Below, piece by piece: positions 1,225 to 55,724 of a DNA stretch of 64,000 nucleotides (the first letter of the stretch is position 1; every line of letters begins with the position of its first letter). A model generated the notes under the pieces. It worked only from the letters and a program-made list of their open reading frames with translations. It was not told where the DNA came from and searched no databases. The position numbers and the translations under genes were made by a program. Where the stretch lies: the IMG/VR virus record IMGVR_UViG_3300037189_013673, positions 6,513 to 70,512 of that record; one strand, written 5' to 3'. The stretch comes from a virus.

Positions 1225-1488
1225 ATGAACATTTTAGAAGAAGCAAATCAAATTGTAAATCAACGTTCTGAAGAAAAAGAACGTACGTATGGTCCATTCA
1301 GTGAAGGAATGAACAGAGCCGCTTTAATTTTATCAGGAATGGTAGGATATGAAGTTGATGCTATTTATATGTATAAAGCCATGATAGCTTTAAAATTATC
1401 TAGAGAATCTTATAACCATAAAGAAGACAATTTACTTGATTGTGTAGCTTATATTGGAGCAATGAATAATCATATTAACGATTTTTAA
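1225..1488 (+). CDS. DUF6378-like helical protein (putative nucleotide pyrophosphohydrolase fold)
   Basis: ILEEA..IV....E..YG ... M..LK..R ... DN..D...Y pattern; lies in nucleotide-modification cluster. Confidence 0.65.
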   Translation: MNILEEANQIVNQRSEEKERTYGPFSEGMNRAALILSGMVGYEVDAIYMYKAMIALKLSRESYNHKEDNLLDCVAYIGAMNNHINDF

Positions 1489-1490
1489 TT

Positions 1491-2411
1491 ATGAAAACAG
1501 GTATAATAGGAATTTTAAATAATCCAGCTACTTCTAAAAACTCACACTCGGCTGGTATGGTTCACATAGTATCTAAACTTTATGATGCTAAAGTATTAAC
1601 TGAAAAAGATAATTGGCTTGAATACGAAAAACTAATTATATATCACGGTGTTAATTTTAAACCTGGGGTTTTTAATGTCATAGGTGGTATAAACGATGGT
1701 GTTTTATTAAGAGCTAAAAAACTAAACGATTACATAAATAGTAAAACAGAACAAGATTGGCTTGAATCTGTATTTTCATTAGATGGTTTTCAATTAAATG
1801 GTTTTTCTATAAAAAGAAAACTAAACTTATATGATGATGCAAAAGATATAAGTATAATACCTCTTGCTAATAGAGAAAATTTAGTAATAGGTGATTCTCA
1901 TTCTTTATCTGTTTGGCCTAACGAAGAATATACTATTTCAAGAAATGATGGTAAAACTCTTCATGGCTTTTTAAAGCAAAATAGAGATTTATCTGATTAC
2001 AAGAAAATTATATTTTATTTTGGAAATATAGATTTAAGATTCCATTTAGCTAGACAAGAAAATCCTATTGAAGCAACTAGAGATTTATTTAAAAGATATG
2101 TTGATTATGCTTCTAAATACGACTGTACTTTAGTTCAATTACTTCCTGTAGAAGATGAATCAAGAATACTTCCAAAATCTGGTCAATATAAAGGTCAAAA
2201 CTTTTATGGTTCTATTGAGCTTAGAAAACAATTAAGACTTGAAGCTAATAAAATTATAGTTGAGTCTGGATTACCTACCATTGATTGGCCTTTAGAATAT
2301 TTAGATAATAATGGTAATTTATCTTTCGAAGTCATGGAGCCAAAGCAATCTGTTCACTTAAAACCTGAATTTTACTTAAGAAACTTTAAGAGACAATTAA
2401 CTTTATTTTAA
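1491..2411 (+). CDS. Hypothetical protein with SGNH-like C-terminal domain, DNA-modification cluster
   Basis: LVIGDSHS, FYFGNIDLRFHL and SVHL motifs. Confidence 0.55.
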   Translation: MKTGIIGILNNPATSKNSHSAGMVHIVSKLYDAKVLTEKDNWLEYEKLIIYHGVNFKPGVFNVIGGINDGVLLRAKKLNDYINSKTEQDWLESVFSLDGFQLNGFSIKRKLNLYDDAKDISIIPLANRENLVIGDSHSLSVWPNEEYTISRNDGKTLHGFLKQNRDLSDYKKIIFYFGNIDLRFHLARQENPIEATRDLFKRYVDYASKYDCTLVQLLPVEDESRILPKSGQYKGQNFYGSIELRKQLRLEANKIIVESGLPTIDWPLEYLDNNGNLSFEVMEPKQSVHLKPEFYLRNFKRQLTLF

Positions 2412-3454
2412 TGGAATATTCATTTGAAATTAAAGGTGATTTATTACAAGCTTTAGATGAATATCATTTTAAAAGCATGTTAATGGAAAAATATGTTATT
2501 GAGAAAAATCATTTTGAAGGTGATATTGAAAAAGCAGTTAATGATGATTTAATTTATCATATACCTATCTATGATATGGGTCAAAGAAAATATGCTGCCT
2601 TTTGTTCTTTTACAGAAGCTGTTTGGAATAAAGATAAAGATGTCAAAGGTAACGGAGTACATTTTGCTAATCATGAAATTAAAAATGAATTTGATTGGTT
2701 GATGTTATTTTACTTATTTAGATTATCTGGCTCAGGTATTAATTATAAACCTAAAACAGATAGTTTATTTACTTCATTTATAGGTACTCATGGTTTTGGT
2801 AATTTTTGGATTGTAGATTCTATTTTAAAAAATAAATTTACTTATCAAGAATGGTTAAATGATTTAAAAAATACTAGTAAACCATTTACAGATAATAAAG
2901 GATATTTATTGCCTCAATTTTCATTTGAAGGTTTAGAATCAAATCATTTAAAAAAATTTATTCTAGAATACTCAGTTGATTTGGTAACTCATTTATATAA
3001 TTTTATGTTAACTGGTCAAAAACAAATTTATCAAATAACAGATGAAGGCAATAAATGGCTAAATGATAAAGGATTTAAAAGACAAAACTTTGTTTTAACT
3101 GCTTTCGCTGCTGATTTAGCAGAGTATTTTCCTAATTACGTAGATAGATTTGGTCTTGTTTACGCAGGCACTAATGCTACTAAATGTATTAAAGCAATAT
3201 TTCCTAAAATAAATAAAAAAACTTCTGAGTTTGAATATATCAATGATGTCTTACAATTTCAATCTAAACGTTATAAATTAACTCCTATTGATTGCGAAGA
3301 CTCAAGAAACTGTGATTTAATTAGATATTTTCAAGAATATCAATCAAGTCACCATATACTTAAAAACAAAGGTATTAAAATGAAAAATAATTCAGTATTA
3401 AAACGAACAATGGGATTAGATAACTATTATCAATTCTCTAACAACTTAAAATAA
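2411..3454 (+). CDS. Amino acid:DNA transferase / aGPT-pyrophosphorylase-like protein
   Basis: AAD.AEYFP, YAGTNA..CI and IDCEDS.NCD.IRY resemble conserved blocks of the HhH-fold aGPT-Pplase family; next to PLP enzyme and TS homolog. Confidence 0.6.
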   Translation: MEYSFEIKGDLLQALDEYHFKSMLMEKYVIEKNHFEGDIEKAVNDDLIYHIPIYDMGQRKYAAFCSFTEAVWNKDKDVKGNGVHFANHEIKNEFDWLMLFYLFRLSGSGINYKPKTDSLFTSFIGTHGFGNFWIVDSILKNKFTYQEWLNDLKNTSKPFTDNKGYLLPQFSFEGLESNHLKKFILEYSVDLVTHLYNFMLTGQKQIYQITDEGNKWLNDKGFKRQNFVLTAFAADLAEYFPNYVDRFGLVYAGTNATKCIKAIFPKINKKTSEFEYINDVLQFQSKRYKLTPIDCEDSRNCDLIRYFQEYQSSHHILKNKGIKMKNNSVLKRTMGLDNYYQFSNNLK

Positions 3455-4347
3455 TGGCACACGATAAACACATTATAGATGGCATCAATAAAGATGTCAA
3501 TATGTTATACCCTGATAAACATGCTTATCTTGAGCTAACTAAAGATTTTAAATCATTACTACCTAATATTATAATAAAAGAGCATGAAGGAGTAAAAGTA
3601 GTTAGAGAAGATTTAACTTTAGTTGGTGGTACAAAAACTAGAGCTGGAGAATTTTTAGTTTCTCAAGTTAAAAAAAATACTTTAGTTTACGTAGTTCCTA
3701 GAGTTGGTCATGCAGGTATTGCTATAATGGAATTGGCTAGACTTTATAATAAAGAAGTTATATTTTTTATGCCTGCTTGTAAAGAGATTTCAGACCATCA
3801 ATCTTTTATTATTAATATGAAACCTAAAGATGTCATATTTGAAAGAATTGCTGCGATGCCTAATTTGAATTTATTAGCTAAAAAATACGCAGAGCAAAAT
3901 GGTTATCAATTCTTACCTTTTGGTTTAAATCATTATAATACTATTGCTGGTTTTGTAAGAATATGTGAGAACTTATTAAAAAACTATGATGAACCAGAAG
4001 AAATGTGGTCTGTAGTATCAACAGGAGTACTTACTAGAGGTTTACAGATAGGTTTTGAAAATACAAAAATGAATGGTATCTGTGTTGCTAGAAATATGAA
4101 ACAAGGAGAATTAGGTAGAACTAAAATAATATCAGAACCATTACCATTTTTACAAGACGAGAAAAAAAGTAATTTACCTGAATTTAATACCGTGCCTAGT
4201 TACGATGGCAAAGGTTGGAAATATGTGCCTAAAAATACTGGTAGAAATGTTTGGTTTTGGAATGTTGCAGGTAATATTTCTGCTCCTGAAAACTTTGATA
4301 AATCTAAAATAAATTCTTATAGAGATTGGAGTAAAAATCAAATTTAA
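3454..4347 (+). CDS. PLP-dependent enzyme (fold type II, cysteine synthase/ACC deaminase-like)
   Basis: VVREDL..GGTKTR (PLP lysine), VSTGVL loop, SYDGKGW, WFWNV. Confidence 0.8.
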   Translation: MAHDKHIIDGINKDVNMLYPDKHAYLELTKDFKSLLPNIIIKEHEGVKVVREDLTLVGGTKTRAGEFLVSQVKKNTLVYVVPRVGHAGIAIMELARLYNKEVIFFMPACKEISDHQSFIINMKPKDVIFERIAAMPNLNLLAKKYAEQNGYQFLPFGLNHYNTIAGFVRICENLLKNYDEPEEMWSVVSTGVLTRGLQIGFENTKMNGICVARNMKQGELGRTKIISEPLPFLQDEKKSNLPEFNTVPSYDGKGWKYVPKNTGRNVWFWNVAGNISAPENFDKSKINSYRDWSKNQI

Positions 4348-4388
4348 AAATTTAACTTTTCTTTAACATGTTGAACCAATATTCTTTC

Positions 4389-4396
4389 TATATTTG
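4389..4396 (+). promoter_or_regulatory. Bacteroidota -7 promoter element TATATTTG
   Basis: TAnnTTTG about 40 nt upstream of ORF 4436. Confidence 0.65.
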
Positions 4397-4435
4397 TACC
4401 AATAAACTTTAACAATAACTTAAAACAAAAAAAAG

Positions 4436-5038
4436 ATGAACATTAAACACAAATTAGCTAGTTCTAAAGACAAAAAATGTACTATTTTAGCATCTGATAT
4501 TGCTAAAAAATTTAAAACTTCTGATGATGTAATAAAATTACATTATTTAGATTACGGTTTTTTTGTAACTTACCATAAATCAAGAAATGGTAAAACTTAC
4601 TACTGTGATTCAATATTCCCTAATGCTGTACCTATGCCAAGTATAGGTCAACCTGTTGCTTTAAATGTTCTTTTAATACAATTAATTGATTTATTTGTAT
4701 TACAGCCTGAAAGCGAAAAAGAAATGGTTTTAGATATGAAATTAACTAATGAGTTTGAGCCTATTAGAATCTGGGCTAACAAGAAAGGTATTTTTGAGAA
4801 AGGCAATCCAACTACTCAATTTGCTAAACTTATTGAAGAAGCAGGCGAATTAGCTAAATCTTTATTAAAACAAGATGAAGAAGAATTTATTGATGCTATA
4901 GGTGATTGTGTAGTAGTTCTTACAAATCTAGCTAAATTAAAAGGTTATAATATAGAGGATTGTATTAACTCTGCATATTCTGTTATAGCAAAAAGAACTG
5001 GTAAAATGGAAAACGGAACTTTTGTAAAAGATATATAA
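4436..5038 (+). CDS. MazG-like NTP pyrophosphohydrolase with about 100-aa N-terminal extension
   Basis: KLIEEAGEL...DAIGDCVVVL...KRTGKM..GTFVKD. Confidence 0.85.
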   Translation: MNIKHKLASSKDKKCTILASDIAKKFKTSDDVIKLHYLDYGFFVTYHKSRNGKTYYCDSIFPNAVPMPSIGQPVALNVLLIQLIDLFVLQPESEKEMVLDMKLTNEFEPIRIWANKKGIFEKGNPTTQFAKLIEEAGELAKSLLKQDEEEFIDAIGDCVVVLTNLAKLKGYNIEDCINSAYSVIAKRTGKMENGTFVKDI

Positions 5039-5706
5039 TGGAATTTATTAATGCACAAGAAGCTTTTGAGTTTTATTATAATCTTATTTTAGAACATGGA
5101 AAACCTCTCAATAATACTAAGTTTATTCAAAACGAAGGGTTTTATATTTTAAACCCTATTGATAATAAAATAAACACTGAATTTAGAAATTGGAAAAATT
5201 CTTATGCTCAATTAGAATGGGATTGGTATTTATCTGCTAATAGAGATGTTTCTGAGATAAAAAAACAAGCTAAAATCTGGGACAAAATGCATAATGGTGA
5301 TAATTTAGTTAACTCTAATTATGGTTACCAATGGTCTAGAAATAATCAATTACAATTTATAATTGATGAATTAACTCAAAACCCTAATTCAAGAAGAGCT
5401 GTAATTACTATTTATGACGGTAAAGACCATGAATTGCATTCTCTTGATACTCCATGCACTTTAAATATAGTTTTTAATATAACAGATGATAAATTAAATA
5501 TGAGCGTTCTAATGCGCTCTAATGATTTATGGTTTGGATTCTGTAATGACCAATATTGTTTTAGTAAATTACAAGAATTAATTGCTTTAAAACTTAACTT
5601 AGAAATAGGCTGGTATTATCATTTTGCTAATAATTTACATTTATATGATAAACATTTTGATAGCTTGATTAATCATAAAAATATGTTTATATTTACTAAA
5701 AAATAA
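5038..5706 (+). CDS. Thymidylate-synthase-family enzyme, dCMP hydroxymethylase type (T4 gp42-like)
   Basis: NSNYG, SRRA, PCT catalytic Cys, MRSNDLWFGFCND with Asp at the position of E. coli ThyA Asn177, HLY. Confidence 0.8.
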   Translation: MEFINAQEAFEFYYNLILEHGKPLNNTKFIQNEGFYILNPIDNKINTEFRNWKNSYAQLEWDWYLSANRDVSEIKKQAKIWDKMHNGDNLVNSNYGYQWSRNNQLQFIIDELTQNPNSRRAVITIYDGKDHELHSLDTPCTLNIVFNITDDKLNMSVLMRSNDLWFGFCNDQYCFSKLQELIALKLNLEIGWYYHFANNLHLYDKHFDSLINHKNMFIFTKK

Positions 5707-8726: not shown

Positions 8727-10268
8727 TTATATACCACCATCTACTATAATCCAATTATTTGGTGCGCCAGTTAATATGTTTTTACCAGCTTGTCCAGCTA
8801 TTGTGTATTTTATACTTCCAAAGTTTACGTTTGTAAGGTTTGGCTGAACAGGTAATAAACTCCAGCCATTGTATATAGCATTTAAGTTTGTCGTAGAGTA
8901 ATTTAAGTTTGTTTTATTTAACATAAAGTTTAAAAAACTTGAAACATTAGATATATTCCAACTTCCTATGTTTTGATTAAAAGCTGTTGCTGAATTAAAC
9001 ATTGATGTCATATCAATAACATTAATAACATTCCAAGAATTTAATGGTTGATTAAATATAGATGCTCCTCTAAACATAAATCCCATATTTGTAGCACTGC
9101 TAACATTCCATGAATTTAATGGTTGATTGAAAGCAGTGTTAAAATTAAAAACACTTCCAAAATCAGTTACGTTGCTAACATTCCATGAATTTAATGGTTG
9201 ATTAAATGAAGTAGCTGTTGCAAACATTCCAAAAATACTTAAAGCACTAATTAAATTCCAAGAATTTAATGGTTGATTAAAATTAGTAGCGTTAGAAAAC
9301 ATAGAGGCAAAAGTTTGAACATTACTTACATTCCAAGAATTAATATTGTAATTAAATGGTGTACTTTGAAACATACTATTCATATTAATAACTGAAGAAA
9401 CATTCCAGTTACTTAAATTATCATTAAAGTTACTATTTGAAAATAAATCATCCATAAAAGTAACATTACTTACATTCCATTGATTAATATTATTAATAGT
9501 AGTTAATGAATTACAACTGTTAAACATAGATGTTAATATAGTCGTTCCTGTTAAATTTAAAACACCTACAACAGAAGATAAGTTTAAATTTTGACAAAAA
9601 GCAAAATAATTACCAGTATTTCCAAGTTTTAAAGTTCCCCAGTTAGAAATTGAAAGTATTTTATTCCTATCTCCAGTAAAATTAAATACAAAACCTGTTA
9701 TTGTACCTGTTATAGTAATAGTATAAGTACCTGCTACTGCATAAGTATGAAGTGTCTGAGCTTGATTCCAAACTGTGATTGTGTTTTGAGTGCCATCTCC
9801 CCAGTTTACTACAAAGTTATAAGTTCCTGAAGAATCTAAAGGTAATTGTACTTGGTTAGCAGCGCTTGAACCTACTGTTGTATTACTAGTATTCCAAGTA
9901 GAAATGAATGCTGTTGAAACCACTTCTAAAGCTCCATATATATAATAACTACTAGAAACATAAATAGTATCGCCGCTATATTGAAATAAACCTTGATTTA
10001 AGCTATTTAAAGCGCTAACTACTGATTGAATATTATTACTACTCAAAGAAACAGAATAATAGACAGGTGTAGTGTTTGATGTATTAGAAATATAAATAGT
10101 AACTAAATAACTTCCGCTATAATTTTCAGTAGTTAAATTCCAACTATACATTCTATCGGAGTTACTTGCTGAATTTATATTTGGTATAGCTTTTAATATC
10201 TCAATAGATTGTGAAAAGCTTGTGTTATTTTTAATTCTTAAAACTATTTGTGTTTCTACTTTTCTCAT
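8727..10268 (-). CDS. PKD + DUF285/BspA-type repeat protein, putative receptor-binding spike
   Basis: VNWGDG...HTY..AGTYTITI (PKD); tandem 25-aa FNQPLNSWNVSNV..M..MF repeats. Confidence 0.85.
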   Translation of the reverse strand: MRKVETQIVLRIKNNTSFSQSIEILKAIPNINSASNSDRMYSWNLTTENYSGSYLVTIYISNTSNTTPVYYSVSLSSNNIQSVVSALNSLNQGLFQYSGDTIYVSSSYYIYGALEVVSTAFISTWNTSNTTVGSSAANQVQLPLDSSGTYNFVVNWGDGTQNTITVWNQAQTLHTYAVAGTYTITITGTITGFVFNFTGDRNKILSISNWGTLKLGNTGNYFAFCQNLNLSSVVGVLNLTGTTILTSMFNSCNSLTTINNINQWNVSNVTFMDDLFSNSNFNDNLSNWNVSSVINMNSMFQSTPFNYNINSWNVSNVQTFASMFSNATNFNQPLNSWNLISALSIFGMFATATSFNQPLNSWNVSNVTDFGSVFNFNTAFNQPLNSWNVSSATNMGFMFRGASIFNQPLNSWNVINVIDMTSMFNSATAFNQNIGSWNISNVSSFLNFMLNKTNLNYSTTNLNAIYNGWSLLPVQPNLTNVNFGSIKYTIAGQAGKNILTGAPNNWIIVDGGI

Positions 10269-13632: not shown

Positions 13633-13857
13633 TTAATCTTTTTTATTTTGTTTATTAGTTACTCCATAATCTGAAAAAGTGTACCACATTCTTTCATGTA
13701 AAAAATATATAATTGGTTTTATGCAAATTTCACTTAATCCTATACTACCAGCTACCCAAAAGTTGCCAGTAAAGAAATAAGATATTAAGCAAGTCTGCAT
13801 AGTTCCCAAGCATCTATAACTTATTGCTTTTGCTATATGTCTTTTAAAGTTTACCAT
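13633..13857 (-). CDS. DUF2061 small membrane protein
   Basis: RH.AKAISYR..GT ... YFLHER.W. Confidence 0.8.
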   Translation of the reverse strand: MVNFKRHIAKAISYRCLGTMQTCLISYFFTGNFWVAGSIGLSEICIKPIIYFLHERMWYTFSDYGVTNKQNKKD

Positions 13858-14248
13858 CTTTTCTTAATTGCTCTCTTACTTTTGTTGCTGAAACTTCTGC
13901 TATTTCTTTTGGTGGTATATGCTCAATAATATCATACCCAACTCCTCTACCAAATTCAACAGAGCAAATATCTGGAATTATTATTACTTTAACTTTACCT
14001 GTATTTACTAATAAAGCTAATTGTTCTTCAATATTTTCTTTTATATCCTCTGCTTTAAAAGGATTCTTTTCATTTATTTTTACATCTCTAATTGCTATAC
14101 AAACTTTTTTACCTTCATTTAATGCTCTATTAAATAATGCTTTATGTGATGAATGTAAAGGTTGCCAACGACCAATAAATAAAGCATATTGCTCTTTTTT
14201 TGCTGGTAAAGTTGATTCAACATGAATATTTTTATCCCAATTTTCCAT
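13844..14248 (-). CDS. HxGH-class nucleotidyltransferase (cytidylyltransferase-like)
   Basis: FIGRWQPLHSSH and VSATKVR. Confidence 0.8.
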   Translation of the reverse strand: MENWDKNIHVESTLPAKKEQYALFIGRWQPLHSSHKALFNRALNEGKKVCIAIRDVKINEKNPFKAEDIKENIEEQLALLVNTGKVKVIIIPDICSVEFGRGVGYDIIEHIPPKEIAEVSATKVREQLRKDGKL

Positions 14249-14554
14249 TTAACTTATTGTTGCTATATTATTATAAAATTCAACCTTGTTTGCTTGTAAA
14301 ACTATATGATGCTTATATCCTCCTAAATCTTCGTAAAATTCACTTTCAGTTTTGCATGGTATTTTAATTTGAACTTCGCTTGTTTGATATTCAATGCCAT
14401 CTACAATTACTCTCCATTTTGTAGTTCCATCAAAATCATTAAAGTTAAATCTAATTTGAATATATTGAGTTTGATTTTCTTTTTTAAGAATAATTTTTTT
14501 GCCTTCTAAAATAAAACTTTGTAATATTTCTTTAGTAGTTTGCTTAATCATCAT
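14249..14554 (-). CDS. Hypothetical protein
   Basis: 101-aa ORF within cassette. Confidence 0.65.
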   Translation of the reverse strand: MMIKQTTKEILQSFILEGKKIILKKENQTQYIQIRFNFNDFDGTTKWRVIVDGIEYQTSEVQIKIPCKTESEFYEDLGGYKHHIVLQANKVEFYNNIATIS

Positions 14555-15014
14555 TTTTATTTTTTAAGTTTATTTTATCAAGCAATTCGTTTACAGAAGT
14601 CAATTCATCAACATCAGTTGTATCTATATCAATAAAATTGCTTTCTGGATATTCATAGTTTTCAACATGAAAATTTTCTCTACCTCTAATATTTGTAGTA
14701 TGAACAAATATTTCAGTTACATCAGCTTCAAACTTAAATTTTTCTCTAATATCTAAATATGGAGATACAACTGCGATAATAACATCAAATTCTTCGGTTG
14801 TGTCCAAGTATTTTGCAATATTATAGGCAGTAGTAATATTATATCTTCTACCAGCTTCTGAATAGTCTTTATTTGTAATTATTTTGCGCAAAATATCGCC
14901 ATCAACTACAAATGCTTTTCTTTCAGGTCTTGATATTTCAAGCACTTTTTTTAAGTGATTTGCTAAAGTGGTTTTACCAGAATGAGGTTGACCGATAAAA
15001 TTGTAGATTGCCAT
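14544..15014 (-). CDS. cysC: Adenylylsulfate (APS) kinase
   Basis: GQPHSGKTTLA P-loop, DGD.LR, DYS..GR..N, VSPY..R, YE.P. Confidence 0.8.
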   Translation of the reverse strand: MAIYNFIGQPHSGKTTLANHLKKVLEISRPERKAFVVDGDILRKIITNKDYSEAGRRYNITTAYNIAKYLDTTEEFDVIIAVVSPYLDIREKFKFEADVTEIFVHTTNIRGRENFHVENYEYPESNFIDIDTTDVDELTSVNELLDKINLKNKNDD

Positions 15015-15042
15015 GATGTTTTAGTTTAAGTTTTTGGTTTAA

Positions 15043-15050
15043 CAAATATA
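15043..15050 (-). promoter_or_regulatory. Bacteroidota -7 promoter element
   Basis: caaatata on + = TATATTTG on -, upstream of cysC. Confidence 0.6.
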
Positions 15051-15060
15051 ATAAAAATTA

Positions 15061-15882
15061 TTATACATAACCAAAATAGTCATAAAACCATTTATAAGTA
15101 TTTTTTATATCTCTTGAGTTTTCAAATCCTAAAACATCTTCAAAATCATCTTCTAACTTTTCAAACTTTGGTCTTAATTGGTGGTCGCCATAAATACCAT
15201 GAAAAACATCATTTTCTTGTGTATGTTGTGTTATATTTACAAAATCATGCTTATCATAATAAGGTAAATCAAAATACTCATACAAGCGCTTAATTTCAAT
15301 TTCTGGATTAGCCATTAAATCTTCATATCTAATAAAAAGTATATTTTTGTCAATCTTCTGGTCTATTACATCTTTTAAACCTTCTATAGAAGTTCCGACA
15401 GGTGTTCCATTTGCCCAAATATCAAGTCTTTTTCTTAAAGTAGTTCCTTGAAGTTGCATTGGGTTTTGAACATGATTTTCTTTATGTGGATTTTTTCTAA
15501 AGTTTTTCTCCATAGAAGCATAAATAGAACGTAAATCTCTAACCATACATACCATTTTAGGTGTATTGTAAAACATATTAGTAAAACGATAGTTAGTAAT
15601 CCATGCTCTGCTTTTATCTAAAACATAAGGTTTTTGTGTAATAGCATTAAAGTAACCATCTATTGATGCTCTACAAAAATGCAAAAAAGCAATATCCATT
15701 AATTTGGCATCTTGCGTTTTAAAGTTTGGAGATTGTTGAAAACTTGCTCTTGCCCCAAGTATTAAATCTAAAAATCCACTTGTAGGTGTGCAATAAAATT
15801 GAGGATTTTGTGCTATAATATTACTCAACAAAGTTGAACCAGCACGAGGTAATGATGAATTAAAGAAATAACTTCTTTCCAT
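15061..15882 (-). CDS. Sulfotransferase
   Basis: SLPRAGSTLL PAPS-binding loop, DKSR.W, VRDLRSI.AS, RYEDL..NP. Confidence 0.85.
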   Translation of the reverse strand: MERSYFFNSSLPRAGSTLLSNIIAQNPQFYCTPTSGFLDLILGARASFQQSPNFKTQDAKLMDIAFLHFCRASIDGYFNAITQKPYVLDKSRAWITNYRFTNMFYNTPKMVCMVRDLRSIYASMEKNFRKNPHKENHVQNPMQLQGTTLRKRLDIWANGTPVGTSIEGLKDVIDQKIDKNILFIRYEDLMANPEIEIKRLYEYFDLPYYDKHDFVNITQHTQENDVFHGIYGDHQLRPKFEKLEDDFEDVLGFENSRDIKNTYKWFYDYFGYV

Positions 15883-19711: not shown

Positions 19712-20278
19712 CTATTTTATTCCTAATAAAGCTGCTAATTTTGGATTTTTTACTTTAAACTTATCAAACGGTTTATCTAAATTATATTCTTTTAAAAAAT
19801 CAGCAGAGTATTGAAATATTTGATTATTAAAATCAATACTACTATTTATACCAATAAATTTAACTTTAACATTACCATTTACTTCTATATTTATTGGGTT
19901 TCTAGCTAATATATCTTTAACTAAAGGTAAAACTGATGTTTTAGCTTTTTGCAAATCAATAGTGCCATTTATTTTTAATGGAAAAGAACTATTAGGCAGT
20001 ATTACAAAAGAATTATTAGATATTGAATTAGCAAATTGAACTCCTTTAAAACCAAATTTTAAATCATAACTTTTAACTATAACTTCAAAAGAAGATTTAT
20101 TAGTTAAATCAATTTGTAATGAAACATCTATTTTGTTATTAGGTATATCTACATTTTCGTATTTAAAACTTTTAATTTTATAATCATAATTTAAAGCTTG
20201 ACTTATTTGATATTTAAAATACCTATATAAACCAAAACCAGCCAATCCTATACCACCAAATAATAATACTTTTTTCAT
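19712..20278 (-). CDS. Membrane-anchored LEA_2/WHy-like beta-sandwich protein
   Basis: N-terminal TM; L.I.LTNKSSF.V.VKSY...F.G..FA...F.I.PNS pattern. Confidence 0.65.
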   Translation of the reverse strand: MKKVLLFGGIGLAGFGLYRYFKYQISQALNYDYKIKSFKYENVDIPNNKIDVSLQIDLTNKSSFEVIVKSYDLKFGFKGVQFANSISNNSFVILPNSSFPLKINGTIDLQKAKTSVLPLVKDILARNPINIEVNGNVKVKFIGINSSIDFNNQIFQYSADFLKEYNLDKPFDKFKVKNPKLAALLGIK

Positions 20279-20279
20279 T

Positions 20280-20477
20280 TTATTTTTTCTTATATGAAAT
20301 TCCTACTTTTAAAAGTACTAATAATAAAACAGCACTAGCAACTAATATAGTATATCTTAAAATAGTTTTATTACCAGTTTCTTTTTCTTTATCAATAAGT
20401 TTCATTTGTGTCTCTTCTTTGTTCAACAAATCTTGTATTCTGCTCATTTCTGAACTATCATATATTAATCCAGCCAT
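20280..20477 (-). CDS. Small C-terminal TM protein
   Basis: YTILVASAVLLLVLLK. Confidence 0.7.
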   Translation of the reverse strand: MAGLIYDSSEMSRIQDLLNKEETQMKLIDKEKETGNKTILRYTILVASAVLLLVLLKVGISYKKK

Positions 20478-20480
20478 CTT

Positions 20481-20837
20481 TTAATTTTTTTGTGTTGCTA
20501 TTAATAAAACTCCAAATGCTAAAACAAGTATTCCACCACCTACTATAATTCTTTTTCTTGCTTGTGCTTTGCTATCTGGCTCAATCCTATCTTTATCTAC
20601 TGCACTATATTTATTTACATAATAATCAACCATTAAACCTTTAGTGCCTATATTTTTCTCATCACATTTTAAAACTACCATTAATGCTTTTTTACTTGCT
20701 AAAAATGGTGTTATTTCATTTAATTGTGATTCATTAAATTCTCTTGCATAAAAGTCTTTTTTAACTAATAGCTTTTCAACTTGGTTTTGCAATTCCATGC
20801 AATCGGTTGTTTTTGGAAAATCTGTTGCTAATGACAT
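20481..20837 (-). CDS. C-terminal TM protein with one Cys-pair helical unit
   Basis: DCMEL...LKC; IIVGGGILVLAFGVLL. Confidence 0.75.
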   Translation of the reverse strand: MSLATDFPKTTDCMELQNQVEKLLVKKDFYAREFNESQLNEITPFLASKKALMVVLKCDEKNIGTKGLMVDYYVNKYSAVDKDRIEPDSKAQARKRIIVGGGILVLAFGVLLIATQKN

Positions 20838-20840
20838 AAT

Positions 20841-22037
20841 TTATTTTTTTAAAACCATATAAAAACCAGTAAGTAATACTAATGCACCAATTCCAATGTA
20901 AGCATATTGCTCTGTTACATTTTTCTTTAACACATTACTTTCTTGCTGACTTGCCATATCGGTAAGCACGATTGCATTATCTTTTAACTTTTCACTTTCT
21001 AATCTACCTTTGCAACCTTTATTAATAAAATCATTTTCTAAATTTGCAGTTTGAGCTTTAAATTTATTAAGTATAGTTTCGCTTGAACTTGTCCATTGTT
21101 CACCTAATTCAAGTTTCTTTTTTAATCTATAAAGTATTTCTTCTTTATAAGATTTTATATTTTCATCTAATTTAACGCAATCTCTAACATCTTTGTAATT
21201 AACTCCAGTTCTAACTATTTGTTTTGAAGCACAAGTAGTTTTATCAAAAATTTGTTGCTTAAACTCTAAATCTCTTTTAGCGCCAAACATATCACTTCTT
21301 GCCGGAGAACCTAATCTATTTGAATCTGGGTCTGCTTTATATCTATCGTATTGCTCTTTTAAAGTAGAAATATCTTCTTTTAAAGTTTCACAATCTACAT
21401 TTGCTACATCACAACTATCGTATGCTTTTTTTAAAATTGCTACTTTTTCTTTTTTTGATGGTAATGTTTTAGTAACTAAATCTTTAGTTCCTCCCCATTT
21501 GAATTTAAAATCTTTATCATTTAAAGCAGTAAGGTCTGCTTCAACATCTATTACTACTTTATTTTCTGTTAAATAAGCTATACCATTATTAACACAATCA
21601 GATTTAAACTCTTGTGTTTTAAGACAATTGCCACCACCAACACATTCCATCGCGTCCATTTCTTGACCACAAATAGAATTTCTATATTCTTCTAAAGCAT
21701 CTAAATATATTTTTTGAACTTTATCTTTTTGAGCTTGTAATTCAGCAACTCTTTTTTTACTTGCTTCATTTAATTGGTAGCCACCACTATAAATAATACC
21801 TTGTTCTGGATTAGTTATAGCGTTTATTTGTCTTTGAATTTCAAATGTTGCATAGTAATTTGTAGCTATTTTTAAAAACAAAACTTCGCAATGAAAATCT
21901 TGTTGTACTTTAGATACAATTTTAGGTTTTGTAATACCTAATCTAATCAATGGGTCATATTTGGTATCTTTAAGTAAAGCTAAAGCAATACCACCGGTAC
22001 CTAATGCTATAAAAGATGCTCCAAGTAATTTACTCAT
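20841..22037 (-). CDS. Membrane protein with N- and C-terminal TM and repeated Cys-bounded helical units
   Basis: DC..L...I ... C units; YIGIGALVLLTGFYMVLKK. Confidence 0.75.
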   Translation of the reverse strand: MSKLLGASFIALGTGGIALALLKDTKYDPLIRLGITKPKIVSKVQQDFHCEVLFLKIATNYYATFEIQRQINAITNPEQGIIYSGGYQLNEASKKRVAELQAQKDKVQKIYLDALEEYRNSICGQEMDAMECVGGGNCLKTQEFKSDCVNNGIAYLTENKVVIDVEADLTALNDKDFKFKWGGTKDLVTKTLPSKKEKVAILKKAYDSCDVANVDCETLKEDISTLKEQYDRYKADPDSNRLGSPARSDMFGAKRDLEFKQQIFDKTTCASKQIVRTGVNYKDVRDCVKLDENIKSYKEEILYRLKKKLELGEQWTSSSETILNKFKAQTANLENDFINKGCKGRLESEKLKDNAIVLTDMASQQESNVLKKNVTEQYAYIGIGALVLLTGFYMVLKK

Positions 22038-22040
22038 TTT

Positions 22041-22478
22041 TTATTTTTCTTTAAAAATTCCCATAAAAATAATTAATGCTCCAACTCCTACTAAAGCATA
22101 TAAAACATAATTTGTTTTTGGTTTTGGTGTTGTAGTTTTTGCTGATTCAATATTTTTTAAATCTTTAATTAAATTATCAACTGGTTTTTGGGTTGTATTT
22201 TTAGGTGGTTTAGGAGTAACAATGTCTTTAACTACATCTTTTACATTATTTTGTGAATCTTTTATATCTTGCGCAAGTTGTTGAGCCAATTCTCTTGGAG
22301 TTGGTTGATTAATTGGCACTGGTATATCTTGATTAACCATAGTTTGTCCATACTCATTTACAATCAAATTTGGATTTGTTCCATAAACAATTGGTGTACC
22401 CATAGGTACATCTACTATATTGCTATTGCCTTGAAATACTGGGTCAACGTAAATTGTTTCTTTTGTTGGTGCTTTCAT
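22041..22478 (-). CDS. Pro/Thr-rich protein with C-terminal TM
   Basis: YVLYALVGVGALIIFMGIFKEK. Confidence 0.75.
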   Translation of the reverse strand: MKAPTKETIYVDPVFQGNSNIVDVPMGTPIVYGTNPNLIVNEYGQTMVNQDIPVPINQPTPRELAQQLAQDIKDSQNNVKDVVKDIVTPKPPKNTTQKPVDNLIKDLKNIESAKTTTPKPKTNYVLYALVGVGALIIFMGIFKEK

Positions 22479-22502
22479 ATTTTTTTTATTTTAAAATTTT
22501 AA

Positions 22503-23039
22503 TTATGACATTACAAAACCAGCACCTTCAATAATTGGTTTTATTTTATTTTTTGTAACAAAATCAGCAATTCCTAATTCTTCTTGTAACCAGCCAACTA
22601 AATCTAAATCTGGGTTTTTACCAAAAATAACTGGGTTATCTAATCCAATAGGGCTTTGAGATGGAGTACCACCGTTAATCGAAGAATAAGTTCTTTGACC
22701 AAAAGCATTATAAATCATTTTAAAATCTTCTGAATTTATTTTGCTAAATATTGATTTTATGACAGATAAATCAGTTCCCCAGTAATAATTAAATGCTTTA
22801 AATAATTGCTCTGCGTAATTTTGTGCAGTTGCTTGTGAAATTTTAGTTTTAGTAATATCAACTTGTTGTTCATGATAGTTAGCACCAATTACTTTTTGAC
22901 CAGATACTAAGTTTTTTAATCTTTTAACAACTGCTAATCCAACTACTATAATAACAATTGCACCACCTACATATAGTAATGGTTTTCTATTATTTCCTAT
23001 GAATGTGCCAGTTTTACTTAAAGTGTTTTTTAAATCCAT
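22503..23039 (-). CDS. Membrane protein with annexin-repeat-like domain
   Basis: TM then AEQLFKAFNYYWGTDLSVIKSIF...IYNAFG...DLVGWLQEEL. Confidence 0.55.
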   Translation of the reverse strand: MDLKNTLSKTGTFIGNNRKPLLYVGGAIVIIVVGLAVVKRLKNLVSGQKVIGANYHEQQVDITKTKISQATAQNYAEQLFKAFNYYWGTDLSVIKSIFSKINSEDFKMIYNAFGQRTYSSINGGTPSQSPIGLDNPVIFGKNPDLDLVGWLQEELGIADFVTKNKIKPIIEGAGFVMS

Positions 23040-23045
23040 TTTTTT

Positions 23046-23366
23046 TTATTTTTTAATTACTTTACCTCCACCTTGAACATTATATTTAATGTTTTTATGT
23101 GTAAATTGATATTGATTATTTAAAACTGCTCTTGCCCAATCTCTTAAATAAGCTGCTTCAAAAGTTTGCAATGCACTTCTTAATCCACTATATTTACCAG
23201 CATTTATAATAGTATCTATGTCACTTTCTTTTTGATTAGCAACATCTGGAGAAATATTTTGTTTAGAGTTTGCCAAATCTTTAGCTTCTTGTACTTTTTT
23301 AAAAATAATATATCCTCCAATTAATAATATGGAAAAACCTAATAATTCAAATTTATATTTTTTCAT
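23046..23366 (-). CDS. Small N-terminal TM protein
   Basis: LLGFSILLIGGYIIFKK. Confidence 0.75.
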   Translation of the reverse strand: MKKYKFELLGFSILLIGGYIIFKKVQEAKDLANSKQNISPDVANQKESDIDTIINAGKYSGLRSALQTFEAAYLRDWARAVLNNQYQFTHKNIKYNVQGGGKVIKK

Positions 23367-32326: not shown

Positions 32327-32555
32327 TTGATTCTGATTTTAATAATTCATCATTACTATTTGTAAAATAGTTTTTTATTAAATAAACTCCACCTGAAAGT
32401 AAACCTACTTTACCCATATTTAAAAAATCTGTTATTGCTGGAAATACTCCACTAACAACACTTGTACTTAATAAACCTACAATAGTAGTTCCAATAGTCA
32501 TAAAAGCGCCTTTTGATAAGTCTTTTATATTTAATTTTTTGTATTTGCTTTTCAT
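32319..32555 (-). CDS. Putative holin
   Basis: 78 aa with two hydrophobic segments, overlapping endolysin start. Confidence 0.6.
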   Translation of the reverse strand: MKSKYKKLNIKDLSKGAFMTIGTTIVGLLSTSVVSGVFPAITDFLNMGKVGLLSGGVYLIKNYFTNSNDELLKSESNG

Positions 32556-33376
32556 TAATCTAAATAGTATTTAATAATTCTCTCTTTATGTTGCTTAACA
32601 GCAGTTTCTGGCGTATGAACTTTTGTACCTTTACCTAAATCTCTTTTTTGCAACATTGGAGAAATTAATTTTTTATAATTTTCAGAAATATATTGTTCAA
32701 CAATACCTTCGAATTTTTTTCTATCTACTCCTTTAATTTTTTCGTCTTCAATATCTACATAACAGAAAAACCTTGGATTATCATAATTATGATATTCATT
32801 ATTCACATAATTTTCTACTAATTTTAGCAACTCGTATTTGTCTTCAAACTTATTTCTATGCTTATCTACTGAATCTGTATTTTTATGAAACCTAATCCAA
32901 CTTAAGTTTTGCCATATCTTAGGTGAAACTCTACCTACTGACTGAAAATGCAAAATAATATCAGTATCGGTATGTCTATTAGTGCAAATAGCACCAACAA
33001 GGTCATTAGGCAAATAATCAGAAATATATCTATTAATATCTTCGATAAGTAATAAACCGCCTCTATAATCATTTAAAATTTTAAATAAAGTTTCTTGAAT
33101 TTCACTAATTGTCATTCTAACTCCATTTTCATGGAATGGTCTAATTCTTCTAGCTTCAATCCTTGGATGCGATGAAAATCTCATAATATCAGATAGTTTT
33201 AATGCTTTTATATCTTCAAACTCATCATTGACATCTAATATTAATGCTCTACGTGCTGGTATTCCTTTAGCTGGATTACCAAGTATGTATTGTTTTATCA
33301 TTTTATTAGTAGTATAAGTCTTTCCGCATCCTTTCCTTCCTACTGCTACTCCTAATTTTGGTTCTCTTTCTTCCAT
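32555..33376 (-). CDS. FtsK/HerA-superfamily (A32/P9-like) genome packaging ATPase
   Basis: N-terminal Walker A GRKGCGKT, Walker B LLLIED, NRH Arg finger, hhhFQS sensor; 273 aa with no nuclease domain. Confidence 0.75.
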   Translation of the reverse strand: MEEREPKLGVAVGRKGCGKTYTTNKMIKQYILGNPAKGIPARRALILDVNDEFEDIKALKLSDIMRFSSHPRIEARRIRPFHENGVRMTISEIQETLFKILNDYRGGLLLIEDINRYISDYLPNDLVGAICTNRHTDTDIILHFQSVGRVSPKIWQNLSWIRFHKNTDSVDKHRNKFEDKYELLKLVENYVNNEYHNYDNPRFFCYVDIEDEKIKGVDRKKFEGIVEQYISENYKKLISPMLQKRDLGKGTKVHTPETAVKQHKERIIKYYLD

Positions 33377-48596: not shown

Positions 48597-49106
48597 TTAT
48601 TCTTGAGTACTTAATGAAATATCTGCGTTTTGTTTATTTTTCAAAACACGTAAAGCTTCTTCTTTTGTTAATTTTTTGACAATAACTTTAGTACCTGCTA
48701 CTTCAGTAACAATACCATAATCATCTTTAACTCTAATAATATCGCCTACAACAGGTGGTATTTTTACCTTTTTTGGAGGTGGTTGATTAGGTTGTGGATT
48801 ATTAACTTGAGGAGGCGTTTCTTTAAGTTCTTTATAAATCATATCTTCAAAAAATAAAATAGCATCTTCAAAGTTTTCTTTGATTGTTTTATTTTTTGTA
48901 AAAAATTCTTCATAAATAGTATAAACTCCATTTACTTCTTTAAATACTTTGTAAGGATTAGTGTTTACTTGACCTACGTAAGCATTTGGGTTGAACTTTA
49001 CCTCTATGTTCATACCTGTAGTTGTATTAGTTAACCTATAAATTACTTCATCAGGGCTAATTACTTCTGTGCTTTCTGTTAATTTACCTTCTTTATATAC
49101 GAACAT
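48597..49106 (-). CDS. Hypothetical protein with Pro-rich linker and possible KOW/SH3-like end
   Basis: VGDIIRV...YGIVTEV. Confidence 0.7.
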   Translation of the reverse strand: MFVYKEGKLTESTEVISPDEVIYRLTNTTTGMNIEVKFNPNAYVGQVNTNPYKVFKEVNGVYTIYEEFFTKNKTIKENFEDAILFFEDMIYKELKETPPQVNNPQPNQPPPKKVKIPPVVGDIIRVKDDYGIVTEVAGTKVIVKKLTKEEALRVLKNKQNADISLSTQE

Positions 49107-54399: not shown

Positions 54400-55686
54400 T
54401 TATTTTGCTAATTTATCTATGATAGTTTTAAATTGTCTTGCTATGTCTTTCCATTTTAATTTTGAAACTTTATTGTAGGCATTTTCTATTTTTACTTTAA
54501 CCATATCTTGAAGTTCTTGTTCATCATTTTTTAAATTATAAGCAATTTCCATTAAAGTTTTTACTTCTCCACCTGAACAAACATATCTAACTTTTTCATA
54601 ATCTTTAACGAATACCATTGGTGTAGAGTAAAGAAAGTTTAATGTATTTTCACCGTTATTAGTTATTTCTGTTATAGAAGTGTGTTTAGGGCAAATTACA
54701 AGAGTTTTAGTTGCCATTGCTTCAGTTATTGTTAAACCCCAGCCTTCGGCTGTAGTAGTAGTTATAAAGCAATCAAAAGAATTATAAATTTTATTTAATC
54801 TACTAATATCAAATCCTTTATTTTCATTATAGTCTTTTGGTGTAAGTACATCTATTCCAAATCTAAGTCCAAGTCTTTCGCATAGTCTTTGAATATTAAT
54901 ACCTGCAGTATCTAAAGGATTACAATGTAAATATAAAATAGAATGTACAGGTTCTTTAGCGGTATTTTTAAAATACGCAAATCCTAAAATAAGAGTTGCT
55001 AAATCTTTTCTAGCTGAATTTCTGTTTACTGTACCAAAAATATAAGCATCTTTATTTTCTTCTCCATAAATACTAGCTTTTATTTTGGTTTTTTCATCTT
55101 CTTCAAGAGGAAAAAAATCAGAAGTGTTACAACCATGAGGTATTACTTTTACTTTTTTAAATATTGTAGGAGAAACCATTCTTTTAATGACATCTTTAGC
55201 ATATTCAGTGTAAGTTATAACTTCATCAAATAAATTTAAAACTTGTAAATCACTAACTCTAGGTTCAGAATCAATAGGAAAATAAACCATTGATTTAAAA
55301 GAAGGCTTGTTATTTTTTTTCTTTTCTACTTTTACATTTTTAAAATGTTCTGCAAAATCATTAAATACTTCAATATCATTTAAACAGAAAACTACATCCC
55401 AATCATTATTATATAATAATCTTAAAAATTGTAATCTACAATAAAAATCTCCTTTAGGGTCTTTTTCTTCTACTGTTGTAGCCGCAGGTATAACTAAAAC
55501 GTTTTCTTTATAATGATAAGGTTTTTCAGCTGTATCATTAATTGCAAATATTACTGTTTTAAGTTTTGAATCATTTGACCATTCATCTACTAATTCTTTT
55601 GATACTTTAGCAAATCCAGTATCACAGCCAAAATCAGCATACATTAATAAGTTTTTTTCTTTAATCTCGTTTTTTATAACTTTCAT
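54400..55686 (-). CDS. GT-B glycosyltransferase (GT4-like)
   Basis: TGFAKV, IPHG, NRN..RKD, EGWGLT.TEAMA. Confidence 0.88.
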   Translation of the reverse strand: MKVIKNEIKEKNLLMYADFGCDTGFAKVSKELVDEWSNDSKLKTVIFAINDTAEKPYHYKENVLVIPAATTVEEKDPKGDFYCRLQFLRLLYNNDWDVVFCLNDIEVFNDFAEHFKNVKVEKKKNNKPSFKSMVYFPIDSEPRVSDLQVLNLFDEVITYTEYAKDVIKRMVSPTIFKKVKVIPHGCNTSDFFPLEEDEKTKIKASIYGEENKDAYIFGTVNRNSARKDLATLILGFAYFKNTAKEPVHSILYLHCNPLDTAGINIQRLCERLGLRFGIDVLTPKDYNENKGFDISRLNKIYNSFDCFITTTTAEGWGLTITEAMATKTLVICPKHTSITEITNNGENTLNFLYSTPMVFVKDYEKVRYVCSGGEVKTLMEIAYNLKNDEQELQDMVKVKIENAYNKVSKLKWKDIARQFKTIIDKLAK

Positions 55687-55724
55687 TATTTTTTGTTTTA
55701 AGTTTCTGGTGTAAATATAATAAA

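Follow-up and report, generated by a model that had tools for sequence, protein, structure and literature searches.

A phage gene cassette that may place amino-acid chemistry on 5-hydroxymethylcytosine

The DNA discussed here is a stretch of 64,000 nucleotides, called the window below, from a virus listed in IMG/VR as IMGVR_UViG_3300037189_013673. The window takes in bases 6513-70512 of a linear record of 70,512 bp, the completeness of which CheckV puts at 98%. It carries six neighboring genes (Table 1), which encode a DUF6378 protein, a protein of 306 amino acids with an SGNH-fold part (p306), a 347-residue protein resembling amino acid:DNA transferases (ORF2411), an enzyme dependent on pyridoxal 5'-phosphate (PLP), a protein with a MazG-type domain, and a homolog of thymidylate synthase (TS). 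Together they probably form a cassette that makes 5-hydroxymethylcytosine (5-hmC) and then attaches an amino-acid-derived group to it, with p306 in place of the DNA kinase found in the known thymidine pathways.

The cassette and its genomic setting

The analysis computed gene content, folds, signature residues, family memberships, linkage, and fusions. A check of the open reading frames (ORFs) placed all six genes on the plus strand and at the positions claimed for them in an earlier note on this DNA, which had been made from its letters alone. Stop and start codons overlap as TAATG at three junctions (p306/ORF2411, ORF2411/PLP, and MazG/TS). The genome has a GC content of about 26%. The cassette is part of a rightward early-gene block that also encodes a PD-(D/E)XK nuclease and RecT, and the remainder of the window runs leftward with structural, lysis, and accessory genes. 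The affinities of the phage point to those of the Bacteroidota: the TS homolog matches a gene of a Bacteroides phage, p306 matches one of a Tenacibaculum phage, and a crAss001_48 domain is present.

Table 1. Cassette genes, followed by other features of the window that are mentioned in the text (positions are those of the window; aa, amino acids; HhH, helix-hairpin-helix; NTP, nucleoside triphosphate; dCMP, deoxycytidine monophosphate; APS, adenosine 5'-phosphosulfate)
Feature	Position	Strand	Length and basis
DUF6378 protein	1225-1488	+	87 aa; Pfam PF19905
p306: N-terminal alpha/beta part (~1-123) and C-terminal SGNH-fold part (~124-306)	1491-2411	+	306 aa; predicted structure
ORF2411: divergent amino acid:DNA transferase-like protein, HhH-glycosylase-like all-helical fold	2411-3454	+	347 aa; predicted structure
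M6 gp52-family enzyme of PLP fold type II, predicted to decarboxylate a DNA-linked amino acid	3454-4347	+	297 aa; phrog_7093
MazG-type all-alpha NTP pyrophosphohydrolase domain (~100-200) behind an N-terminal half without assignment	4436-5038	+	200 aa; PF03819
TS-family enzyme with 5-hydroxymethyl-dCMP synthase signature	5038-5706	+	222 aa; PF00303
DUF285-repeat protein	8727-10268	-	513 aa; E 7.6e-71
Possible sulfation module	13844-15882	-	
134-aa protein	within 13844-15882	-	134 aa; matches a PHROG kinase C-terminus and a cytidylyltransferase family
APS-kinase-like P-loop protein	14544-15014	-	PF01583 E 2.1e-11; PDB APS kinases ~1e-5
Sulfotransferase	15061-15882	-	PF13469 E 9e-18
Walker-A protein	32555-33376		273 aa
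Polyvalent protein with DUF5824 and an ADP-ribosyltransferase domain	49093-53490	-	1465 aa; ART-PolyVal, E 6.5e-10
Glycosyltransferase run	54400-57043 and 57975-58601	-	

The grouping of these genes is not chance. Stretches matching the 347-aa family were confirmed in viral contigs 217 times, and a first set of 80 viral loci encoding the family was assembled. On the same strand these loci have the PLP gene in 78 cases, DUF6378 in 74, p306 in 73, the TS homolog in 64, and MazG in 31. A second set, found in viral contigs with the profile of fused proteins described below, comprises 80 of 585 confirmed stretches. DUF6378 is the constant upstream neighbor of the p306 gene: its cluster is present in 73 of the 80 second-set loci, with a median start 283 bases upstream. 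The contigs that host the cassette range from about 38 kb to about 185 kb, and a range this wide indicates that the cassette moves between very different phages.

A thymidylate synthase homolog of the cytosine type

The TS homolog is the sole TS-family gene in the 70.5-kb genome. It matches PF00303 with E 5.6e-26 (91.7 bits against a cut-off of 24.3) and contains the string RSNDLWFGFCND that the earlier note had quoted from it. By phmmer, its top PDB sequence matches are cytidine monophosphate (CMP) 5-hydroxymethylase MilA (2e-18) and the T4 dCMP hydroxymethylase gp42 (2.4e-17).

The available text of Lee et al. 2026 (PMC13326640) links residues of this family to what its members do, in the numbering of Escherichia coli ThyA. 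There, N177D goes with dCMP as the substrate, an acidic residue at L143 goes with a product other than methyl, and D169N marks the 5-hydroxy-dCMP synthases, such as RB69 gp48. In the phmmer alignment, Asp171 of the TS homolog pairs with Asp179 of T4 gp42 at the N177 position, where four hydroxymethylases of deoxyuridine monophosphate (dUMP), namely those of SP10 and PhiW-14, a ViI-like phage enzyme, and M6 gp58, have Asn. The L143 position is acidic (Asp137, three residues before Cys140), and D169 is retained as Asp163 within R-S-N-D, whereas RB69 gp48 reads R-S-Q-N. The catalytic Cys, C146 in ThyA, is Cys140 in D-T-P-C and pairs with the Cys of the T2, 44RR, and RB69 enzymes and of the dUMP hydroxymethylases. 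Asp137/Asp163/Asp171 is the T4 pattern, common to T2 and 44RR gp42, and the TS homolog has neither the dUMP signature nor the 5-hydroxy-dCMP signature. Because T4-type residues occupy the three diagnostic positions, it is concluded, subject to assay, that the TS homolog is a predicted 5-hydroxymethyl-dCMP synthase. The dCMP signature had been noticed earlier at the Asn177 position, and the two further positions agree with it.

One could also consider that the thymine position is the target, with the TS homolog using dUMP, or with hydroxymethyl-dCMP being deaminated to hydroxymethyl-dUMP before incorporation. The characterized pathways that combine an amino acid:DNA transferase (AADT) with a PLP enzyme all act on 5-hydroxymethyldeoxyuridine (5-hmdU), according to the available text of Lee et al. 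2021 (PMC8989533), and the papers found to mention aGPT-Pplase concern thymine or unrelated topics. After a gene of Bacteroides phage BF486P2, which is 54% identical, the phage proteins that the TS homolog matches best are ViI-like enzymes (about 33% identity), and in loci L021 and L062 the cassette has a dCMP deaminase gene as a neighbor. However, TS-like genes near p306 or transferase genes have the cytosine-type Asp at the 177 position, and never Asn, in 64 of 64 cases in the first set (both Asp residues kept in all, D-x-P-C in 59), in 10 of 10 in the flanks of the second set, and in 3 of 3 low-scoring genes from 10 larger records, six of which, all fragments, have no TS-family gene. The top PDB matches given above are two cytosine-specific hydroxymethylases, and a Pfam scan of ORFs of at least 60 aa in the whole record found no deaminase. 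In addition, L021, G006, and G010 also carry a canonical ThyA, which fits the arrangement in T4, where thymine stays thymine. A thymine target is improbable on this evidence.

The surroundings of these genes differ from phage to phage. BF486P2 has a dUTPase gene between two genes of the TS family (record bases 19770-23283), each of which carries the annotation dCMP hydroxymethyltransferase; no homologs of the transferase or of p306 were found in cultured Bacteroides phages. In L021, genes for dUTPase, dCMP deaminase, and canonical ThyA adjoin the cassette, and an HNH/NUMOD3 homing-endonuclease-like gene (L021:5285-5965) sits just before the transferase gene, within a 2-kb stretch that parts it from p306.

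The SGNH-fold protein p306

Pfam has no match for p306, even at E 10, and its profile finds only chance-level rows among PDB sequences. The protein collection holds 1061 homologs of near length. An AlphaFold model built on an alignment of 28 sequences chosen for spread, 12 from the homolog search and 16 from the loci, has a predicted local distance difference test (pLDDT) score of 91.7. Foldseek returned 74 PDB matches to this model at E <= 1e-3, and the rows listed are nearly all SGNH/GDSL esterases, thioesterases, and O-acetyltransferases, with a few designed scaffolds. VIA-align gives Z scores from 13.2 to 8.5 over 50 entries for residues ~124-306; the structural neighbors include the acyl-CoA thioesterase TesA and the O-acetyltransferases PatB and OatA. 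In the model, residues ~124-306 are an SGNH fold, as the SGNH-like label of the earlier note had it, and the N-terminal domain is weakly flavodoxin-like, with a template modeling (TM) score below 0.5.

The 28 sequences, which go down to 38% identity, share the invariant residues G134-D135-S136-H137, N179-I-D181, and S287-V-H289. Motif reading assigns SGNH block I (the serine of G-D-S), block III (Asn179), and block V (His289) within them. The apparently intact Ser-His site, together with neighbors such as TesA, PatB, and OatA that work through an acyl-enzyme, suggests that p306 could activate its target by acylation.

The cassette may, however, modify 5-hmC in DNA by a different chemistry. In that case p306 could trim an intermediate or a donor as an esterase or deacylase, or be a non-catalytic DNA-binding partner; the HhH protein could use a substrate that requires no activation beforehand, or attach a group that is not an amino acid; and the PLP enzyme could carry out beta-replacement or elimination. 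The SGNH enzymes in the p306 structure lists are mostly hydrolases, and one match (Z 11.4) is the OSK domain of Oskar, which is SGNH-like but inactive. The catalytic Ser, Asn, and His, on the other hand, are invariant in all 28 diverse sequences, which argues against a non-catalytic role. Known transferases of the ORF2411 type of fold displace a leaving group (PMC11472151 and the available text of PMC8989533), so an activation step is expected, and there is no other conserved candidate for it.

The transferase-like protein

The 374 homologs of the 347-aa protein in the protein collection are all unnamed. The protein has no match in Pfam (even at E 10), PHROG, or NCBIfam; a weak PF18723 match appears in 2 of 32 family members (best E 0.0023). 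No match came from tblastn against 50,697 phage records or, at E 10, from a profile search of PDB sequences. Sequence models of the aGPT-Pplase and AADT families likewise fail to recognize ORF2411, and the support for the fold that the earlier note had proposed is structural.

The model built from the 32-homolog alignment is entirely helical and has a pLDDT of 90.5. Foldseek against the PDB finds nothing for it at E <= 0.001, the best match being AGOG glycosylase (probability 0.13). A structure search of BFVD, in contrast, finds a protein named for an amino acid:DNA transferase domain with E 2.2e-11 and TM 0.76, and a second such protein with E 2.3e-3. Further BFVD matches are the SP10 5-hmdU DNA kinase (E 4.9e-3), two Pplase1 proteins, and several proteins with the HMUDK helical domain. 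When the model was compared with 48,161 PDB chains by VIA-align, the 5-phosphomethyldeoxyuridine (5-PmdU) glycinyltransferase PaMx11 gp46 (8z2m) scored Z 8.7 (root-mean-square deviation 4.4 Å over 208 residues), a value that lies in the range that a common helical arrangement can give. HhH glycosylases come next, with Z 5-7.8. Since Z values are ambiguous for helical proteins, the weight is placed on the BFVD matches and the gene context. The predicted structure has the HhH/AADT-like fold that was looked for. Cys259, Cys301, Asp235, Asp297, and Asp302 are invariant in the family, and in PaMx11 gp46 the contacts to the flipped base are made by Asp175 and Cys247 (PMC11472151).

The same structural comparison bears on a reading in which these genes work in the salvage of nucleotides or nucleosides or in the metabolism of small molecules, for instance as a DUF2419/Qng1-like nucleoside hydrolase working with an esterase and a PLP enzyme, while the TS homolog alone supplies 5-hmC. 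DUF2419 enzymes of queuine salvage tie with 8z2m and are nominally the top PDB matches of the model (Z 8.8 and 8.5), and no sequence model of a DNA-modifying family matches the protein. Yet the far stronger BFVD matches are proteins with AADT, Pplase1, and 5-hmdU DNA kinase helical domains. Furthermore, the PLP protein shares its family with a decarboxylase that acts on DNA, a homologous PLP domain occurs within ParB-DNA methyltransferase proteins of Erythrobacter phages, and the genes are accompanied by a TS homolog of the cytosine type in phages whose genome sizes differ widely. Salvage or small-molecule metabolism is very improbable as their function.

The PLP enzyme

The PLP protein matches phrog_7093 with E 3.1e-34 over profile positions 15-278 of 279. 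M6 gp52, a validated decarboxylase, is a core member of the same family (E 2.2e-159), which upholds the PLP fold-type II label given earlier. BLASTP against M6 gp52 itself gives a small colinear C-terminal match (E 0.001), and a search of PDB sequences gives none. According to the available text of Lee et al. 2021 (PMC8989533), M6 gp52 and ViI gp226 act as decarboxylases on amino acids that the DNA already carries, and the cassette protein is predicted, as a member of the gp52 family, to be a decarboxylase of a DNA-linked amino acid. The beta-replacement or elimination mentioned above could be argued for, since fold-type II PLP enzymes catalyze many reactions and the PALP match, at E 4.9e-6, scores 26.5 bits, below its Pfam cut-off of 35. 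The protein nevertheless spans nearly the whole gp52 family profile.

A PLP decarboxylase of this kind needs a free alpha-amine, and the cassette has no radical-SAM isomerase. The simplest expectation, by analogy, would thus be an amino acid linked through its side chain, like the serine in ViI.

A gp52-family PLP domain (phrog_7093, E 1.1e-37) also lies inside an 812-aa ParB-DNA methyltransferase protein of Erythrobacter phage ZS04 (L003:2326-4764), and the same setting is found in phage vB_EliS_R6L and Microcystis phage Mae-JY30. The arrangement suggests that PLP enzymes also work on DNA in surroundings very unlike the cassette.

DUF6378 and MazG

The DUF6378, MazG, and TS-family labels of the earlier note each score above the Pfam cut-off, DUF6378 with E 1.1e-11 (45.2 bits against 27.1). 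The further suggestion that DUF6378 depletes deoxycytidine triphosphate (dCTP) finds no support: hhalign against MazG gives a probability of 0.14%, and no PDB sequence matches. A MazG-like enzyme is rejected for this protein on that probability and on the ESM Atlas, which gives only DUF6378 clusters. The literature found on DUF6378 consists of genome reports.

The MazG match (27.4 bits against a cut-off of 22) covers residues 126-184, in the C-terminal half only, and the 200-aa protein matches phrog_1992 and phrog_715, both "MazG-like pyrophosphatase," at E 1e-28 to 1e-29. The domain possibly converts dCTP to dCMP.

Fusion and the wider family

The strongest computational sign that p306 and the 347-aa protein act together is that the two are one polypeptide in other phages. 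Sixteen longer proteins have a p306-like part, and 13 of them, of 560-796 aa, begin with a p306-like half. A fusion profile was built from 12 of the 13 (P0244, P0254, P0255, and P0256 were left out). By hhalign, the ORF2411 family aligns with this profile with a probability of 100% and E 1.4e-87 over 322 columns, A1 columns 3-344 against A5 columns 397-729, that is, its C-terminal half; single-sequence BLASTP gives 1e-17. A complete record of 224,954 bp with terminal repeats contains one such fused ORF, of 790 aa.

In the second set, one ORF contains both halves in 2 of the 80 loci, 30 have separate genes, and 48 have p306 without an ORF2411-type gene. Clusters found 3' of p306 are myo-inositol-1-phosphate synthase in 45 loci, an FkbM methyltransferase in 32, and a 394-aa HMUDK_hel protein (37.6 bits against a cut-off of 25) in 37, plus family B DNA polymerase. 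None of the loci with the inositol-phosphate enzyme has a PLP gene, and this favors a generic role for p306 and so the different chemistry set out above. P0254 and P0255 are triple fusions, with methyltransferase, HMUDK_hel, and p306-like part in one chain. The fusion to the ORF2411 family, taken with the fusion or adjacency to HMUDK_hel, strengthens the activating role that had been suggested for the 306-aa protein, as an activator or as a partner. Cultured phages with the p306 family, as found by tblastn, include T4-like Aeromonas phages and Tenacibaculum phage PTm1.

These loci also reveal a second cassette type (L104-L140 and others, e.g., L109:1714-2934, L114:3823-4533, and L168:4826-6007), with DUF6378, p306, myo-inositol-1-phosphate synthase, a small ORF, the FkbM methyltransferase, and HMUDK_hel, often adjoining a family B DNA polymerase. 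Judged from its genes, it may specify a different, undescribed cytosine modification.

Likeness to known pathways

In thymidine hypermodification (Lee et al. 2018), as described in the available text of Lee et al. 2021 (PMC8989533) for ViI, M6, PaMx11, SP10, and PhiW-14, a dUMP hydroxymethylase, a 5-hmdU DNA kinase, an amino acid:DNA transferase, and a tailoring enzyme act in turn. The cassette resembles these pathways in its clustered genes, with a TS-family hydroxymethylase for the step before replication, an HhH-fold transferase for the step after it, and a PLP enzyme of the M6 gp52 family. It differs in having Asp171 in the TS homolog where they have Asn, in lacking a P-loop 5-hmdU DNA kinase, and in a transferase that falls below the threshold of the Pfam AADT and HMUDK_hel models. 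Instead of the kinase, it has an SGNH-fold protein that is linked or fused to the transferase, and this fusion mirrors the 5-hmdU DNA kinases, in which a catalytic domain is joined to the same kind of helical domain.

The hydroxymethylcytosine pathway of T4 uses the dCMP hydroxymethylase gp42, the dCTPase gp56, the deoxynucleoside monophosphate (dNMP) kinase gp1, and glucosyltransferases. The cassette is like it in that the TS homolog matches T2/T4 gp42 at three signature positions and that a MazG-type pyrophosphatase is adjacent. Unlike T4, the cassette has no glycosyltransferase, Pfam finds no dNMP kinase in the genome, and the genes that would act after the hydroxymethylase are of the amino-acid type.

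To our knowledge, the characterized DNA hypermodifications derived from amino acids are all on thymine and all start with a DNA kinase. In the cited literature, as far as its available text goes, the cytosine hypermodifications described are glycosylations. Non-sugar chemistry on 5-hmC is already in print as a proposal: from metavirome contigs with a C5-methyltransferase, TET, a P-loop kinase, and aG/PT-PPlase, Burke et al. 2021 (PMC8256090, available text) proposed that 5-hmC in phage DNA is activated and passed to a glycosylase-like transferase. In those contigs, 5-hmC would be made after replication by the methyltransferase and TET, and the activator would be the P-loop kinase; in the cassette, the TS homolog would act before replication, with an SGNH-fold partner. 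Open-access text yielded no paper joining a TS-type dCMP hydroxymethylase with SGNH-fold and AADT-like proteins, though cassettes of this kind could already be present in the supplementary contig maps of Burke 2021 and Lee 2021. A search of the same text for SGNH proteins and phage hypermodification gave nothing relevant by title or abstract.

A cultured relative of the fused proteins is ORF233c of Aeromonas phage 44RR2.8t (phrog_17781, 795 aa, hypothetical protein), which is also present in phage 31 and relatives. Homology to p306 covers its first 335 residues (E 9e-26 by tblastn; probability 100% and 38% identity by hhalign with the fusion profile), and gp42 of the same phage carries the hmC signature, as the TS homolog does. 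The C-terminal part has a weak HMUDK_hel match (E 0.0036). Unlike in the cassette, there is no adjacent PLP gene, and the C-terminal half has no detectable sequence similarity to ORF2411; hhalign of the 347-aa family against ORF233c gives nothing. No paper on 44RR with hydroxymethylcytosine and glucosyltransferase was found in open-access text.

The proposed pathway

No obvious kinase is present in the cluster, as had been pointed out before: phmmer with M6 gp54 finds no match in the window, in the first 6.6 kb of the genome, or in the ORFs of 160 related loci. A phage that is expected to replace a base would not usually lack a DNA polymerase, dNMP kinase, and deaminase, none of which the Pfam scan found.

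In the proposed pathway, the TS homolog would turn dCMP into 5-hydroxymethyl-dCMP before replication, and the MazG domain may provide the dCMP out of dCTP. Host kinases, or a phage kinase, would then raise 5-hydroxymethyl-dCMP to the triphosphate, which would enter the DNA. After replication, p306 and the 347-aa transferase would work as a two-part enzyme on 5-hydroxymethylcytosine flipped from the helix. The SGNH part of p306 would substitute for the P-loop 5-hmdU DNA kinase and turn the hydroxymethyl oxygen into a leaving group; acylation at the Ser136/His289 site is the most plausible means. The transferase would displace this leaving group with an amino acid, and the PLP enzyme would strip off the carboxylate, so that C5 of the cytosine would end up with a side chain that bears an amine. 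If the amino acid were serine, as in phage ViI, an aminoethoxymethyl group would result. We infer every chemical step beyond 5-hydroxymethyl-dCMP, along with the acyl activation, which amino acid is used, and what DUF6378 does.

That the cassette makes 5-hydroxymethylcytosine and adds an amino-acid-derived group, with p306 in place of a DNA kinase, is given a probability of roughly 0.55. The central interpretation of the earlier note, amino-acid or amine chemistry on hmC, holds and withstands every computational test applied: the TS signature, the transferase fold, the PLP family, the absent kinase, and a partner role for p306 all speak for it, and the dCTP depletion by DUF6378 is left without support.

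Several points weigh against this reading. The phage is known solely from a metagenomic record, by its genes alone. The Pfam scan of ORFs of at least 60 aa in all 70,512 bp found no dNMP kinase and no DNA polymerase, so the entry of hydroxymethyl-dCMP into DNA probably depends on host activities. In related loci, dCMP deaminase and dUTPase adjoin the cassette and leave room for a deaminated (uracil) route there, and one cassette record of 64% completeness had canonical ThyA only. In p306, the place of the usual Asp in D-x-x-H is taken by a nearly invariant Gln286, with an invariant Glu283 nearby, and p306 could equally be a later-acting esterase or a non-catalytic partner. We know of no SGNH enzymes that activate DNA bases, and known transferases need a phosphorylated substrate. 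The assignment of the transferase comes from a predicted structure, with the helical Z score and the DUF2419 tie described above, and hhalign of its family against M6 gp51 is null (probability 0.06%). Finally, the 48 second-set loci with p306 lack both the ORF2411-type transferase and the PLP gene, which means that the role of p306 is not tied to amino-acid chemistry as such. With these points in mind, the different chemistry on 5-hmC, with p306 as a trimming enzyme or a silent partner, is a serious contender, yet on the whole unlikely.

A broader proposal builds on amino-acid chemistry on 5-hmC and is more tentative than it. Here, p306 would found a new class of DNA-base activators, acylating rather than phosphorylating the hydroxymethyl group of 5-hmC while an HhH-fold partner holds the base out of the helix. 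Together with DUF6378 it would be the core shared by a large group of cytosine hypermodification cassettes not yet described: the amino-acid/PLP type, the type with inositol-phosphate synthase, FkbM methyltransferase, and HMUDK_hel, and the fusions of T4-like Aeromonas phages. This is possible, but we would not bet on it.

If the cassette works as proposed, it would bring amino-acid chemistry to cytosine and provide a second, kinase-free activation of a hydroxymethyl pyrimidine in DNA. Should p306 prove to be a new DNA-base activator, this would be more than a variant of a known system, and if the broader proposal is true, several cytosine adducts that no one has seen so far occur in phage DNA. 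New base adducts are relevant to the resistance of phages to restriction and to clustered regularly interspaced short palindromic repeats (CRISPR) systems, to sequencing artefacts in viromes, and to enzymes used in 5-hmC labeling. The question is directly testable, since the families are abundant (374 transferase and 1061 p306 homologs) and reach cultured phages.

Other genes of the window

Other genes were considered as activators. The possible sulfation module of the window has a sulfotransferase, an APS-kinase-like protein, and a 134-aa protein. A sulfate leaving group made by the APS-kinase-like gene and the sulfotransferase was rejected as part of the core, the sulfotransferase being absent from all four of four related records, one of them 100% complete. 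A hidden kinase in the form of the Walker-A protein was also rejected: neither Pfam nor the PDB offers a match, and of 5 related records 2 encode the protein, the two complete ones not among them. The other P-loop genes of the window are not conserved with the cassette.

The leftward late block starts with the DUF285-repeat protein, which may be a tail fiber or receptor-binding protein. Farther on, past the large polyvalent protein, a run of genes (54400-57043 and 57975-58601) comprises a group 1 glycosyltransferase, a family 2 glycosyltransferase, a hexapeptide-repeat transferase, and a galactosyltransferase-like gene. Their products could act on host glycans or, less likely, on DNA.

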